A program made the translations under genes and the position numbers. Under the pieces are notes generated by a model. That model was not told the DNA's origin and ran no database searches. It saw nothing but the letters and a program-made list of their open reading frames with translations. From Planctomycetota bacterium (GTDB lineage: Bacteria > Planctomycetota > UBA1135), in assembly GCA_018671175.1 (NCBI GenBank), contig JABHIE010000003.1, forward strand, positions 36,560 to 100,559: a stretch of DNA of 64,000 bases. Reading direction: 5' to 3'. This document shows positions 50,209 through 55,241 of this stretch, in pieces. Each line of letters begins with the position of its first letter. The stretch's first letter is position 1.

Positions 50209-50704
50209 GTGGGAGCGCTTGCGTCGGTTGCCTGCAAGTATGCGGGTGTTTTTGTTGGTCCTGACAACGGCCTTGTTCGCTCTGGCAACTTTTCATAACA
50301 GCGACGCCGTGGGGCCGGGGCCGGTGCGTTCTGATCTTTATAACTACGCATCCAATTACGCCCATCAAGTGTTGTTTTTCGCGATGAGCTTTTCTTGGCT
50401 TTTGGCTCGAGGTGCCGCTCGCCCAGGCAAACTTGTTTCCCTCCTGGTTGTTTTGTCTCTCGCGCTGGCTTTTGGTTATCTCGACGAATGGAATCAATCC
50501 GCCAGCCCCGCGCGCCTCGCTTCCCTCTGGGACATCGTCAGTGATCTTTTCGGCGCAACCCTCGGCTGGTCGTTCGCCCGCGCGCTCAATCAAACTCCTG
50601 GCGCAATGCGCTGGCGCCATCCTGCCCTCTTGTGGGGCGTAGGCCTTTTCTGGGGGCTTATCCCCGCAACCTCTGAATACCCCGTTCCGTTTCTGTCGTC
50701 ATGA
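50201..50704 (+). CDS. VanZ-family membrane protein
   Basis: N.AH..FF, GYLDE.NQ..P.R.AS.WD..D..G motifs. Confidence 0.85.
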   Translation: MAKWERLRRLPASMRVFLLVLTTALFALATFHNSDAVGPGPVRSDLYNYASNYAHQVLFFAMSFSWLLARGAARPGKLVSLLVVLSLALAFGYLDEWNQSASPARLASLWDIVSDLFGATLGWSFARALNQTPGAMRWRHPALLWGVGLFWGLIPATSEYPVPFLSS

Positions 50705-52140
50705 CTGACCCACACGCCACTTACTCTTCGCCGCTAGCCTCGCGCTATGCCAGCCCAGAGATGCAGTCGATTTTTTCTTATCGCGCCCGCACTTTGGTTT
50801 GGCGCGATCTCTGGATTCATCTCGCCGAATGCGAGCGCGAGCTGGGGCTTGATATTTCTGAGGCTCAAATCGCCGAGCTCAAGACCGCACGCAATGACAT
50901 TGATTTTGACCGTGTTGCTGAGCTTGAGCGCGAGCTGCGCCACGATGTCATGGCTCATGTTCATGCCTTTGGCGAAAAGGCTCCCAGTGCAAAGGGCATC
51001 CTGCATTTGGGCGCGACTTCTTGTTTTGTTGCCGATGGTGCAGATTTGGTTTCGATGCAGCGGGGCCTTGAAGTCTTGCGCGCTCGTCTCGTCGGCGTGA
51101 TTCGCGCCTTCGCAGGTTTTTGCCATGAGCAACGCGCCCAGGCCGCTTTGGGGTTCACTCATTTTCAATCGGCTCAGCCCACAACGATGGGCAAGCGGGC
51201 TACGCTTTGGCTGCAAGATTTCCTCCTCGATCTCGAAGAAGTCGAAGACGCACTCGCCCGTCTGCCGTTCCGCGGAGTCAAAGGTACGACAGGCACCCAA
51301 GCCAGTTTTCTGCAACTTTTTGACGGCGATCACAGCAAAGTGCGGCAGCTTGACAAGATGCTGACCGAGCGCATGGGTTTCGCCCGCATGGTTTCTGTTT
51401 GCGGTCAAACCTACCCCCGCAAATGGGATGGCGTCGTCCTCGCAGCCGTTTCGGGTATCGGTGCGTCGGCGGCCAAGTTCGCAGGGGATGTCCGGCTTCT
51501 GGCCCACCGCCGCGAGCTCGAAGAGCCATTCGGCAAAAAGCAAATTGGCTCATCGGCGATGCCTTACAAGCGCAATCCGATGCGCAGCGAGCGCGTGGGC
51601 GCTTTGTCGCGCTACTTGCTCAACCTAGCGCCAAACGCTCTCGATACCGCAGCGAATCAATGGCTCGAGCGCACCCTTGATGATTCTGCAAATCGTCGCA
51701 TTGCCATCCCAGAGAGTTTCTTGGCGGCGGATGCCATTTTGCAGTTGGTTCAAGATGTCGCTTCAGGTTTGGTCGTCTACCCCAAAGTGCTCGAAGGCAA
51801 TTTAAATCATGAATTGCCTTTCATGGCCACAGAGACAATTCTCATGGCCGCCGTCCAAAAGGGTGGCGATCGCCAAGATTTGCATGAGCGCATTCGCGTC
51901 CATAGCCATGAAGCAGCGTATCGTCTGAAAGCTGGCGATGGGCGAAATGATTTGCTTGAGCGCATCACGGCTGATGAGGCTTTTGCAGCCATCGTCGACG
52001 ATTTGCCGACTCTGCTTGACCCTATGAAATTTGTGGGCCGCGCTCCGCAGCAAGTCGATGAGTTCCTTGAAGAAGTCGTCCGACCCATTCTTGATGCCAG
52101 GGCAGATGTCGCTGTGCCTGCTGGCGAGATTAAGGTTTAG
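50701..52140 (+). CDS. purB: Adenylosuccinate lyase
   Basis: SPLASRY, RHDVMAH, HLGATS, GFTHFQ.AQ, GSSAMPYKRNP motifs. Confidence 0.97.
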   Translation: MTDPHATYSSPLASRYASPEMQSIFSYRARTLVWRDLWIHLAECERELGLDISEAQIAELKTARNDIDFDRVAELERELRHDVMAHVHAFGEKAPSAKGILHLGATSCFVADGADLVSMQRGLEVLRARLVGVIRAFAGFCHEQRAQAALGFTHFQSAQPTTMGKRATLWLQDFLLDLEEVEDALARLPFRGVKGTTGTQASFLQLFDGDHSKVRQLDKMLTERMGFARMVSVCGQTYPRKWDGVVLAAVSGIGASAAKFAGDVRLLAHRRELEEPFGKKQIGSSAMPYKRNPMRSERVGALSRYLLNLAPNALDTAANQWLERTLDDSANRRIAIPESFLAADAILQLVQDVASGLVVYPKVLEGNLNHELPFMATETILMAAVQKGGDRQDLHERIRVHSHEAAYRLKAGDGRNDLLERITADEAFAAIVDDLPTLLDPMKFVGRAPQQVDEFLEEVVRPILDARADVAVPAGEIKV

Positions 52141-52150
52141 CCCCAAGTGC

Positions 52151-52189
52151 TAAAAAGAATCGGCGGCGACCCTGAGGTCGCCGCCGATT
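52151..52189. terminator. Intrinsic terminator between convergent purB and the Cys-rich gene
   Basis: 14-bp perfect stem AATCGGCGGCGACC/GGTCGCCGCCGATT, CTGA loop; U-tract on the minus strand. Confidence 0.88.
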
Positions 52190-52206: not shown

Positions 52207-53070
52207 TTACTTCTTTGCAGGAGTTTCTTCAGCTTTGCCTTCTTCGCAGCAAGAGCCTGCTTCTGCACCATCTTTCTTTGGAAGGTACTTGGCAGCAGCA
52301 TCAGCTTTGTTGCAGGCACCGCCTTCGCAGTCGCCGTCACAGTTTTCCTCTTCGAGGCAAACTTCGCCATCTTTGCTATCGCAAGATTTTGCGTCAGCGG
52401 TGGAAGGGCAGGCTGCGGTACCCATAGAGGAGCACTCGCTGTCTTTGCCCATGGAAGAGCATTCGCCACCTTTGGCGGCCATCATTTTTTTCATTCTTTC
52501 CATGCGTGCAGCGCGCTGCTCTGGAGTCATGTCAGCCATCATCTTTTGCATCATGGCCATGCGCTCGGTGCGCTGCTCGGCAGTCATTTGACCACCCATT
52601 TTGCCGCCCATCATGTCGCAGCCTTCCATTTTCTTGCCAGGGCCCTCGTCGTCACACTCAGGCTTGTCGCAGCAAGCAGGTGCTTCGGTGCCGGCAGCTT
52701 TTGCAGCCATCGTGGGGCAGGCAGCCATGCCTTTGGCGCAGGAGTCGTTGTCGACACATTCTTCAAGCTTCATGTCGCAACCTTCGTCGCCACATGCGTT
52801 AGCACAAGCTTCGGCTGCACCGCCTTTGGCATCCATTGGGCAAGAGTCTTTGCCCATGTCGCAACCGCCTTTGGCGTCGCAATCGGCTTTCATCGAGGCG
52901 CAGGCCTCGGTGCCCATCATGTCGCAGCTTTCGTCACCTTCGCAGGCGTTTGGCGCGGCAGTGATAGCAGCAGAATCAGTGGCACAGCAATCAGAAGCGG
53001 CGTCGCCCTGAGTCTGAATTGGTTGGCATGAGCACAGCAAGAGCAGTGCAGGAATGAGGTAGCGGATCAT
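52207..53070 (-). CDS. Cys/Met-rich putative lipoprotein (metallothionein-like composition)
   Basis: Hydrophobic signal ending LLCSC; 30 Cys and about 26 Met in 287 aa; no Trp, Phe or His. Confidence 0.8.
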   Translation of the reverse strand: MIRYLIPALLLLCSCQPIQTQGDAASDCCATDSAAITAAPNACEGDESCDMMGTEACASMKADCDAKGGCDMGKDSCPMDAKGGAAEACANACGDEGCDMKLEECVDNDSCAKGMAACPTMAAKAAGTEAPACCDKPECDDEGPGKKMEGCDMMGGKMGGQMTAEQRTERMAMMQKMMADMTPEQRAARMERMKKMMAAKGGECSSMGKDSECSSMGTAACPSTADAKSCDSKDGEVCLEEENCDGDCEGGACNKADAAAKYLPKKDGAEAGSCCEEGKAEETPAKK

Positions 53071-53163
53071 CGTTTTTTTTGGGGGTCTAAAGTGCGTTGA
53101 ACAGAATCAACGAAAAGTGGGGGAAGATTATAACTTCCCCCGGGATTTGTGTGAAGCGTCGGT

Positions 53164-54057
53164 TTAGCGGCCGCCTCGGTTACGCAAGAGTCGCTCGATG
53201 CGATCGAGTTGGTCTTGCATGTCTTCGATGCGATCTTCGAGATCGTCCATCTGGTCTTCGAGGTCTTCGAAAGCCTCTGGGGCTTCCATCAGAATCTCGA
53301 AAGCTTCGTGCATGCCATCAACGCCGTGGCGCATGCTCTGCATCATGCCGCCCATCATTGGGACGCCACGCATGCCGTGCATCTCTTGCATGCCACGCAT
53401 GCCGTGCATCTCTTGCATGCCACGCATGCCGTGCATCTCTTGCATGCCACGCATGCCGTGCATCTCTTTGCCACCATGGCCCTGCATCTTGCCGTGCATG
53501 CTTTGACCACCATGGCCCTTTGATTCGCCGCACTCTTGGTCGCTATCACAACCCGAAGGCTTGCGAGAAGCGCCATGGCACTCTTGGCCTTTGTCGCCAT
53601 TCCAAGAAAACTGCATGGTGTGTGGGCCTTCGCTGACTTGGGCTTGAATCATGGCGTTGAGGTCAAGACCCTCAAGGTCGAGGCCCTCTACCTTTTCAAG
53701 GATGGCATGAATGTCAATGTCGCCAGGCTCGCCAGCAATCATGAATGCATGCGCGCCATCACCCATTTTCATCATTTTGGCGCCAGAAAACGGCATCGCC
53801 ATCCTGCGCTTAATCCGGTGGGGCTTTTTCCCGCTTTCTTGAATTTCAGCGATGACCTGAATCTCGCATTCGCCCGATTCTGGGCAAACAGCATCTTTGG
53901 TGCCTTCTTCGCAGCATGAAGTCTCGGCTTCTGCTTGCTCGATGCCCGTTGAAGTGATGACAACCTGAATCTCTTTTGGAGCTTCAGGGGAAGGTGCGTC
54001 TTGCAGCAAAAATGCTGCCGGTGTGGCCGCAAGGGCCAGGAGTGTGAGTTTAATCAT
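53164..54057 (-). CDS. Secreted His/Met-rich repeat protein with acidic C-terminal coiled coil
   Basis: Signal peptide; EMHGMRG x4; EDLEDQMDDLEDRIEDMQDQLDRIE heptads. Confidence 0.8.
   Translation of the reverse strand: MIKLTLLALAATPAAFLLQDAPSPEAPKEIQVVITSTGIEQAEAETSCCEEGTKDAVCPESGECEIQVIAEIQESGKKPHRIKRRMAMPFSGAKMMKMGDGAHAFMIAGEPGDIDIHAILEKVEGLDLEGLDLNAMIQAQVSEGPHTMQFSWNGDKGQECHGASRKPSGCDSDQECGESKGHGGQSMHGKMQGHGGKEMHGMRGMQEMHGMRGMQEMHGMRGMQEMHGMRGVPMMGGMMQSMRHGVDGMHEAFEILMEAPEAFEDLEDQMDDLEDRIEDMQDQLDRIERLLRNRGGR
53365..53468. repeat. 27-bp perfect tandem repeat, about 3.9 copies
   Basis: Unit gccacgcatgccgtgcatctcttgcat; encodes MQEMHGMRG on the minus strand. Confidence 0.95.
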
Positions 54058-54215: not shown

Positions 54216-55241
54216 TTGAACCACCCCGATTTCGCTTCCTTTGCCGCCGCGCTGCCCTCTGAGGGCAAGCTCGTTTTGTGCACTCACCGCCACCCAGACC
54301 CTGATGGATTGGGGGCTTTGGTCGGTGTGCAGCAGCTGCTCCTAGAAAAATTTGACATTCAATCCGATCTCGTCCTTGAAGGGCGCATTCGTCGTGCTGA
54401 AAATGTGGCCATGCGCCGTATGCTCCGAATCGAGGCATTGCCAAAAGGCGCGGTTGACCCGGCGGTCTATTGTGGCGCGATTGTGGTTGACGCTCAGCCG
54501 GCGTTCAGCCACACGCACCCACCGGGTGGCATCCCTATTTTGGGCGTCATTGACCATCATGACGCTAGCGAAAAATCCGAAGACGATGAAAGCAATGCTT
54601 TTCGCTGGGTAGATTCTAATTTTGGTGCGACATCGACCATGATCTGGAGCCTAATGCGCGCTTTTGAGATCGAGCCGAATGAGCGCACTGCGACAGCTCT
54701 TTTTTGCGGCATCCGGTATGACACCAATGATTTAGCGCGTGATTCGACCGAGCTTGACGAAACGGCTTACTTCTCACTGCAACGACTCGCGAATCGCGCA
54801 TGGATCGGTGCGATCGACCACCCGCCTCTACCTCGAGATTATTTTCGGCAGATGGCGAGGGCGATTGACAGTTGCGAGGTCTCAGGCATTGTGCTGCTGA
54901 CTTTGCTTGGCGAGGTGGATAGCCCAGAAACGGTTGCTGAAGTCGCCGATTGGTTTGTGAGGCTTGAGGGCCAGCAATGGTCACTCGCTGGTGGTGCCTG
55001 CGATGGGCGCTACCAAGTCTCACTGCGCACTGATTTGCCTGGCGCCGATGCTTACCCCGCTTTGCGCTACATTTTAGGTCGTGAGGGCTCTTGTGGCGGT
55101 CACGGTCGCATGGCAGGTGGGCAAATCCCTGTTGGCGAAATGAGCGTCGGAGAGATTGAATCACTCATCTCACGGCGGGCTCGTGAGTTGTTTGGCGTGA
55201 CCGATGAGACCCGTGAGCCACTGAGCTCAACGCGCTCTTAA
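54216..55241 (+). CDS. DHH/DHHA1 phosphoesterase (NrnA-like)
   Basis: H.HPDPDGLG, VVD, VIDHH, GATST, GIRYDT, SLR, GGH..MAGG motifs. Confidence 0.9.
   Translation: MNHPDFASFAAALPSEGKLVLCTHRHPDPDGLGALVGVQQLLLEKFDIQSDLVLEGRIRRAENVAMRRMLRIEALPKGAVDPAVYCGAIVVDAQPAFSHTHPPGGIPILGVIDHHDASEKSEDDESNAFRWVDSNFGATSTMIWSLMRAFEIEPNERTATALFCGIRYDTNDLARDSTELDETAYFSLQRLANRAWIGAIDHPPLPRDYFRQMARAIDSCEVSGIVLLTLLGEVDSPETVAEVADWFVRLEGQQWSLAGGACDGRYQVSLRTDLPGADAYPALRYILGREGSCGGHGRMAGGQIPVGEMSVGEIESLISRRARELFGVTDETREPLSSTRS

Follow-up and report, generated by a model that had tools for sequence, protein, structure and literature searches.

Sulfur-rich exported-type proteins, possible extracytoplasmic metal buffers, are encoded in a conserved chromosomal slot of a planctomycete family, flanked by purB and a DHH phosphoesterase gene

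The 64,000-nucleotide stretch of DNA analyzed here (hereafter, the window) comes from the genome of an uncultured marine member of the Planctomycetota (GTDB lineage UBA1135; assembly GCA_018671175.1, contig JABHIE010000003.1, positions 36,560 to 100,559 of the forward strand) and carries two adjacent minus-strand genes, denoted A and B, that encode proteins with an extreme content of cysteine and methionine. We find that A and B are an undescribed, family-wide pair of exported-type sulfur-rich proteins; no description of this protein family was found in the literature, subscription journals and the supplements of studies on metagenome-assembled genomes (MAGs) being largely outside the search. 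Tentatively, at a confidence short of an even chance, we favor the interpretation that A and B form a constitutive, Sec-exported, metallothionein-like buffer for soft metals outside the cytoplasm, with A anchored in the membrane by lipid and B probably trimeric. If this is true, widespread marine bacteria would handle trace metals in a novel format, with a thiolate buffer that is constitutive, exported by Sec and anchored by lipid. The case also illustrates a protein family that is missed by ordinary homology search and revealed by synteny.

Gene A (P0001; 52207..53070, minus strand) encodes an acidic, Cys-rich lipoprotein-type protein of 287 amino acids (aa) that is predicted to be disordered and contains 30 Cys and 26 Met, no Trp, Phe or His, and a net charge of -23. 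Cysteine makes up 10.5% of the protein, and Cys and Met jointly 19.5%; two of the cysteines (C13 and C15) belong to the signal peptide and lipobox, leaving 28 in the mature chain, which includes a single aromatic residue. There are three CC pairs, and 16 of the 29 intervals between cysteines are 3-7 residues long. Gene B (P0002; 53164..54057, minus strand) encodes an exported-type, Met/His-rich acidic protein of 297 aa with a C-terminal coiled coil, 31 Met, 14 His (Met+His, 15%), 7 Cys and, again, a net charge of -23. Both open reading frames (ORFs) are as the first-pass annotation had described them, two co-oriented genes of extreme composition, and the ranks within the genome (2.39 Mb, 89% complete) agree: of the 1890 non-overlapping ORFs with 100 aa or more, B is first and A second in Met fraction, and A is first in Cys+Met.

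A and B are real genes under purifying selection. In comparison with the same-genus genome G001, dN/dS by a simple counting method came to 0.105 (A), 0.143 (N-terminal part of B), 0.29 (B tail, 58 codons) and 0.015 (purB), and 21 of the 24 aligned cysteines of A are retained. Ranked among 1669 genes by codon use relative to 19 ribosomal genes, A is 54th and B 148th, compared with 255 for purB and 727 for the DHH gene, which fits high expression of A and B, with a possible contribution of composition bias. The stretch is contained in 18 marine metatranscriptome runs from 15 studies; in all 8 runs examined, assembled RNA-library contigs overlap parts of A and B, and in 7 of these, the intergenic region is clearly spanned, although such contigs attest to presence in the libraries and say nothing of level, of strand or of whether the two genes share one transcript; DNA carry-over is possible as well. 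In these runs, the highest contig depth fell over A and B, and two low-share runs contained these genes only, but we did not use this as evidence of expression because the depth and place of contigs cannot rank genes.

The export signals were judged from the sequences and their conservation among orthologs. The predicted lipoprotein signal peptide of A (residues 1-15; 53026..53070, minus strand) ends at the lipobox Cys15, which is invariant in all 12 A orthologs and is followed by a Gln16 present in at least 90% of them; the genome encodes both Lgt and LspA, in support of the lipoprotein-like signal noticed at the first pass. B has a probable Sec signal peptide (approximately residues 1-20; 53998..54057, minus strand), with comparable hydrophobic N-termini in its orthologs. 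Neither N-terminus, as read from the sequence, contains a twin arginine.

In single-sequence searches, A retrieved only its own fragment and B retrieved itself and three close relatives, and a direct search of 41 genomes produced strong matches in G001 only, giving the impression of an orphan pair. This impression is false. When purB and the DHH gene were located in the 41 genomes and the intervals between them fetched and read, a conserved order emerged across the family (f1): purB, encoding adenylosuccinate lyase (50701..52140, plus strand, in the window), forms the left border, followed by a slot on the antisense strand, an unannotated gene of ~290 aa, and, as the right border, the gene for a DHH/DHHA1 phosphoesterase (54216..55241, plus strand). 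The ~290-aa gene (e.g. L026:3046-3900, plus strand), for which Pfam and NCBIfam yielded no match, is found in most relatives and is absent from the window genome (G000), G001 and genus g15. Among the 29 family slots with both flanks on one contig, tallied by hand, 26 hold a gene for a Cys-rich exported-type protein, with lengths from ~80 to more than 800 aa: 6 contain A and B, 8 A alone (in one case next to a leftover piece of the B tail) and 12 B alone; two of the remaining slots are empty and one holds other genes. An obligate two-part system is not supported, given that only 6 of 29 slots combine the two genes. Outside the family, purB and DHH are directly adjacent in two genomes of another family, with the slot absent.

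A profile built from 12 A proteins matched 16 of the 42 other family genomes (one match is marginal and probably unrelated) and none of the 108 genomes outside the family. The B-tail profile matched 24 of the 42, mostly once each, and produced 15 weak matches in the 108 outside genomes; the six of these that were viewed are not Cys-rich, one being a PDZ protein. In genus g5, A is present in all nine genomes and the B tail in none. In a quick IQ-TREE phylogeny of the DHH protein (40 rows, which do not include G012 or further loci for which no DHH sequence was available), A occurs in G000/G001 and in a clade with G002, g15 and g5 (SH-aLRT 99) and B is spread across the family. On this distribution, B looks ancestral in the family, and genus g5 appears to have lost it. 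The 28 loci found via the DHH protein are mostly from Planctomycetota/Planctomycetes MAGs, including UBA1135 and UBA7888, the GTDB taxon UBA1135 having been assigned to the proposed Saltatorellota/OM190 group (preprint 10.1101/817700). Scans of A, B and a subset of their orthologs against Pfam and NCBIfam detected nothing above cut-off, and the ESM Atlas returned only unnamed clusters (<0.9), leads at most.

The orthologs differ greatly in length and sequence. The 12 aligned A proteins share a conserved N-terminus, span 105-382 aa with 14-46 mature cysteines, and frequently end with a CC pair; shorter forms, of ~80-105 aa, are found in genus g15. Pooled A bodies consist of 11% Cys, 21% Ala and 19% Glu+Asp, with less than 0.5% aromatics. 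B proteins combine a hydrophobic signal, a hypervariable body and an acidic coiled coil in which a single Glu is invariant, complete proteins being 297-834 aa long. Two elements that stand out in the window are not general. The Met-rich helical hairpin of A (residues 162-197; 52480..52587, minus strand; two 57-nucleotide units), modeled by AlphaFold as helices 164-180 and 183-200 with a pLDDT of ~90-96 and the remaining chain at low confidence, is an accessory element present in G000, G001, G015 and P0016 and absent from the aligned A proteins of genus g5. The 27-nucleotide tandem repeat of B (53365..53468, minus strand; 3.9 copies, with a 100% match between copies) encodes MQEMHGMRG units (three exact copies, and four of EMHGMRG) and varies among relatives, with four copies here, two in P0004 and a different repeat in the same-genus protein. 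This SilE/PcoE-like 9-mer, noted in the first-pass annotation, is thus not conserved, and both the hairpin and the repeat are lineage-specific rather than family features. In the single-sequence model of B (mean pLDDT 47.6), the only confident element is the C-terminal helix 259-295; a call of disorder from such a model is weak evidence.

The most informative pattern is the exchange of Cys, Met and His between the two proteins. B proteins without A (n = 11) contain 4.4-12.6% Cys and 1.3-15% Met+His, compared with 0-3.6% Cys and 9.3-16.1% Met+His in those beside A (n = 6; gapped proteins were counted on gap-free stretches, and G009 was left out); in two of the latter (G104 and G150), the mature B contains no Cys and 33-38 Met+His. 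Where A and B co-occur, the Cys load has moved from B to the lipoprotein A, and the slot keeps supplying a Cys-rich exported-type chain, with up to 64 Cys, in either format. In G012, where the contig ends before DHH, the position of A is taken by a 69-aa lipoprotein with 9 His and one mature Cys, behind its own terminator (L016:8025-8234, minus strand). Cys, Met and His are all ligands of soft metals. Neither Met nor His can form cross-links, and His does not serve as an oxidant sink. Both Met/His sites for Cu(I) and thiolate clusters have been described (PMC7558416).

We favor a metal buffer because it alone explains this interchange, including the Cys-free B proteins and the His-rich stand-in for A. 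The idea of a metal sponge, raised at the first pass, is supported by the trading of Cys, Met and His across orthologs, and not by the repeat or by obligate pairing. Under the buffer interpretation, A and B would leave the cytoplasm unfolded through Sec; A would be lipidated at Cys15 and tethered to the membrane, and B would remain soluble and trimerize via its C-terminal coiled coil, displaying three ligand-rich arms. The thiols would remain mostly in the reduced state, with the chain folding around metal in the manner of a metallothionein, whereas the Met/His tracts would provide weaker, oxidation-proof sites for Cu(I) or Zn. Expression would be constitutive rather than metal-induced, the result being a standing, high-capacity store of copper, zinc and, possibly, silver or cadmium, with a capacity that may be tuned by repeat expansion. 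The metallothionein-like make-up of A, together with its predicted disorder, lends support to this scheme. The fuller proposition, that of a family-wide, constitutive extracytoplasmic thiolate reservoir made of giant, repeat-expandable exported analogues of metallothioneins, with interchangeable trimeric-soluble and lipid-anchored formats, the Cys load having moved from trimer to lipoprotein in cells without a known disulfide-forming pathway, is possible, but we hold it with considerable doubt.

The proposed trimer draws on the acidic coiled coil at the C-terminus of B (residues 259-295; 53173..53283, minus strand), the sole part of B that is conserved family-wide. Of 11 complete B proteins, 10 have the motif Arg-h-x-x-h-Glu among their final 40 residues; in the B of the window, Gln replaces Arg. 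By comparison, 17 of the 1890 ORFs of the genome have the motif within the last 30 aa. This motif is described as favoring parallel trimers, but is found in some dimers too (PMC3653964). Acidic tails of the B type also terminate exported PDZ proteins (L103:1492-2472, P0075, P0085, P0112 and P0155), and all five such candidates that were scanned match PDZ_2. Because the identical tail type ends these proteins, the B tail is probably a borrowed oligomerization module rather than a family signature, and B might have originated from an exported PDZ protein via loss of the PDZ domain. A search of 1.84 billion proteins with the B-tail profile retrieved mostly generic coiled coils; among the 149 matches that were read, 9 exceed 4% Cys. 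Each of these is similar to B of this family and has the tail at its C-terminal end, and no wider Cys-rich family beyond B was found.

Such an origin would also suit a holdase or spacer: an acidic, disordered protein of the envelope whose ancestors were exported PDZ proteins with this same terminal coiled coil, its Cys/Met richness being incidental. The hairpin of A offers some encouragement for this view in the form of two MTxEQ motifs, which we take to be reminiscent of LTxxQ of Spy/CpxP/ZraP, and a weak match to Metal_resist (E 0.041). The latter, however, is far below the cut-off (14.5 vs 29.2 bits) and is seen in only 1 of 12 orthologs, and a high Cys content persists even in orthologs that have diverged widely, so that we consider this role very unlikely. 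No Spy/CpxP/ZraP-type sequence was among the three matches to the hairpin in a PDB sequence search, of which one, a silkworm DNA-binding repeat protein (E 0.0003), was taken as generic helix-repeat likeness; Foldseek with the low-confidence A model returned no matches.

Several observations weigh against the buffer interpretation. Neither the number nor the positions of the cysteines are conserved, a single body Cys of A reaching 90%, and Cys-x-Cys is rare (1 of 293 intervals in A and 3 of 312 in B). Met+His is scant (1.3-3.3%) in the B proteins of G013, L070, G011 and G023, and the Cys shift rests on three lineages, with two or three independent events, and is a pattern rather than a statistic. 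No conserved operator was seen by eye upstream of A and B. The statement of the first-pass annotation that no transporter or oxidase is encoded next door stands: no gene for a metal transporter, oxidase or metal sensor was recognized beside A and B in the window, where the neighbors are of the housekeeping type (purB, DHH, VanZ-like and ferredoxin by Pfam, others named by eye), and no metal gene was recognized, from ORF starts, in the 13-kb loci of 10 relatives. Two CusA/CzcA-type pumps score above cut-off in the genome, both on other contigs. The sole heavy-metal P-type ATPase was excluded as a linked efflux system because it sits in an apparent cbb3 oxidase assembly cluster (named by eye). 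Small exported Cys-rich and His-rich ORFs head both CusA/CzcA-type pump clusters (C18:48198-48599 and C13:2757-3164).

The missing linkage to metal genes, the lack of Cys-x-Cys, the unconserved Cys positions and a precedent in the Planctomycetes-Verrucomicrobia-Chlamydiae (PVC) superphylum keep a structural envelope mesh as a close rival, in which membrane-anchored A and trimeric nodes of B would be joined by intermolecular disulfides to form a gel in the periplasm or at the surface, analogous to, but independent of, chlamydial OmcA/OmcB and planctomycete YTV wall proteins. Taken by itself, we judge such a mesh possible but doubtful. The OmcA/OmcB arrangement combines a small Cys-rich lipoprotein with a larger exported protein that is also rich in Cys, and is described as heavily disulfide cross-linked (PMC6752827, PMC2811131), and Cys-rich YTV proteins are reported in planctomycete wall preparations (PMC8567305). 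With such envelope proteins known in the superphylum (PMC6752827, PMC8567305), the disulfide-bonded alternative is stronger than the first-pass annotation implied. A and B are also mostly single-copy, with a housekeeping neighborhood and ribosomal-like codon use, and free repeat expansion and odd Cys counts would suit intermolecular links. A mesh is harder to reconcile with G104 and G150, where mature B is devoid of Cys, leaving an A of ~80-105 aa as the sole Cys-rich product, or with the three of 29 family slots that contain neither gene. Moreover, it leaves the Met/His tracts unexplained, and A and B have no Pfam similarity to the Omc or YTV families. YTV repeats (PF07639) had no matches in the window genome and occur in 7 of 121 genomes of the phylum; murA is present in the window genome and, therefore, a protein wall need not replace peptidoglycan.

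The redox context bears on both interpretations. In the window genome, the DsbB, VKOR and Thioredoxin_4/DSBA families were not found, nor was a periplasmic-type DsbA, and the reducing DsbD is present, a combination that weakly supports a buffer of reduced thiols. Of 41 genomes of relatives, two exceed the cut-off for DsbB and one does so for VKOR, and DSBA-family matches, in 20 of 49 family genomes, lack a signal peptide in all seven cases examined; phylum-wide, VKOR is found in 24 of 121 genomes. Bacteria with an excess of even Cys counts in exported proteins are reported to possess, generally, DsbA and DsbB or VKOR (PMC12453122). Such an even-Cys bias is absent here, in keeping with the buffer: even and odd counts are 7 and 5 for A, 4 and 7 for B, and 108 and 154 for the heuristic exported set of the genome with Cys, a crude classifier used without a positive control. 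Also to be set against the buffer, 3 of 5 near-complete genomes (G159, G197 and G243) of the family in which YTV proteins occur throughout show neither VKOR nor DsbB. Cys-rich wall proteins can therefore exist without DsbB or VKOR, making the mesh compatible with their absence, and we accordingly downgraded the argument from missing Dsb proteins to reduced thiols.

Small exported proteins with regular, disulfide-like Cys patterns (C23:83508-83846, C27:145447-145731 and C22:36839-37135), in a genome where DsbA, DsbB and VKOR were not found, hint at an unrecognized oxidation route. In G087, there is a second small Cys-rich lipoprotein (L144:3970-4197, plus strand; ~75 aa, 13 Cys), nearer in size to classical metallothioneins. 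Its gene converges on one for a DsbA-family protein that lacks a signal, and a COG0523/CobW GTPase-like gene (named by eye) lies close by; the window genome encodes a 66-aa relative (C32:9066-9266) with a common C-terminal CCKDAA-containing motif.

Exposed Met and Cys could also serve as a sacrificial sink that absorbs peroxide or hypohalite at the surface and is re-reduced by DsbD and Msr or replaced. MrpX, a Met-rich periplasmic scavenger recycled by YedY/MsrP (PMC4436054), would be the model, Cys and Met would be interchangeable in such a role, and DsbD is available, but we regard this as unlikely: MsrP was above cut-off in none of the 49 family genomes (21 have sub-threshold relatives only, and G000 and G001 no match), no sigma/anti-sigma or msr gene was recognized nearby, and His enrichment would go unexplained. 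Roles in metal buffering, mesh formation and oxidant scavenging are not mutually exclusive. Least plausible, to the point of being highly improbable, is a sulfur store, in which an abundant protein rich in Cys and Met would be broken down whenever reduced sulfur runs short. It could account for the Cys+Met content of A and would accord with the codon ranks of 2 and 5 for sat- and cysC-like genes (named by eye), but export and lipidation would hamper recovery, the His tracts and the conserved coiled coil would have no explanation, and seawater is rich in sulfate. These sulfate adenylyltransferase- and adenosine 5'-phosphosulfate kinase-like genes (C10:42931-45702), ranked among 1669 genes, lie among sulfatase-like genes and possibly reflect an unusually heavy flux of sulfate activation.

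The locus contains two further signals. Between the convergent A and purB, 3' of A, there is an intrinsic-terminator-like hairpin with a 14-bp stem (52158..52189, minus strand); a strong hairpin follows most orthologs, and RNA-library contigs from two studies stop at 52180-52182, a weak hint of termination. Between B and A (53119..53155, minus strand), an inverted repeat (53141-53119) with TATAAT in its loop overlaps a sigma70-like TTCACA-17-TATAAT sequence (53155-53127). This element could be both a terminator for B and a promoter of A's own; a TAnAAT-like hexamer was read by eye ~50-65 nucleotides upstream of most A genes, but the sigma70-like match alone is weak, with 1 site found vs 0.9 in shuffled sequences. 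Elsewhere in the genome, exported multiheme cytochrome-like, CxxCH-rich proteins (C5:1969-2847, C27:149117-150742, C33:48612-50252 and C36:87403-89025) and a narH-like gene (C20:22876), all named by eye, suggest anaerobic respiration, and C29:33522-34064 encodes an exported, strongly basic 180-aa low-complexity protein rich in Gln, Arg, Gly and Met, with CxxC at its end.

By the tests run here, A and B do not appear to be members of the metallothionein, SilE/PcoE, Csp1, OmcA/B, YTV, MrpX or Spy/ZraP families, although each of these offers a partial likeness. Bacterial metallothioneins are described as rare and small, with MymT at 4.9 kDa (PMC7558416), and PmtA as surface-exposed yet without a signal peptide (PMC11237414). 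A resembles SmtA/BmtA, MymT and PmtA in being Cys-rich, nearly free of aromatics and predicted to be unstructured without metal. Metallothioneins often use Cys-x-Cys, however, which A and B almost completely lack, and no metallothionein family matched either protein in Pfam or NCBIfam. Furthermore, A (105-382 aa in the alignment) and B (up to 834 aa) carry Sec or lipoprotein signals and are strongly acidic. SilE and PcoE are Met/His-rich and disordered, and B is similar in being exported-type, Met/His-rich and predicted disordered. Exported copper stores are described as folded Tat substrates or metal-induced Met/His sponges, PcoE being a periplasmic multi-site Cu/Ag sponge induced by CusRS (PMC7558416). 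A and B, in contrast, show no sequence match to SilE/PcoE and lie outside a pco/sil cluster, among housekeeping neighbors and with no regulator recognized, and B differs further in its coiled-coil tail and in its high Cys content in most relatives. Csp1 is, as predicted for A and B, exported, rich in Cys and oligomeric, but it is a Tat-exported, rigid four-helix bundle (PMC7558416), whereas A and B have no twin arginine and no bundle in the models, the chain being predicted disordered.

The comparison with Spy/CpxP/ZraP falters on the LTxxQ-family domain, which is unsupported in A. MrpX, of the MrpX/YedY (MsrP) system, is, as A and B may be, a Met-rich periplasmic protein, but there is no linked msrP or sigma factor, MsrP was not found in the genome, and Cys dominates most A and B orthologs. 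The likeness to OmcA/OmcB and YTV lies in the PVC superphylum and, in part, in the combination of a Cys-rich lipoprotein with a Cys-rich exported partner in the envelope. A has the lipoprotein feature, whereas its partner B is Cys-poor whenever A is present; homology to these families was not detected in Pfam or NCBIfam, A and B are hypervariable acidic proteins of low complexity, and each gene can occur without the other. Chlamydia, for its part, is described as having DsbA and DsbB (PMC6752827), neither of which was found in the window genome. Should the mesh prove to be the correct interpretation, the PVC superphylum would contain, besides OmcA/B and YTV, a third and independent system of Cys-rich envelope proteins, in cells without DsbB and VKOR.

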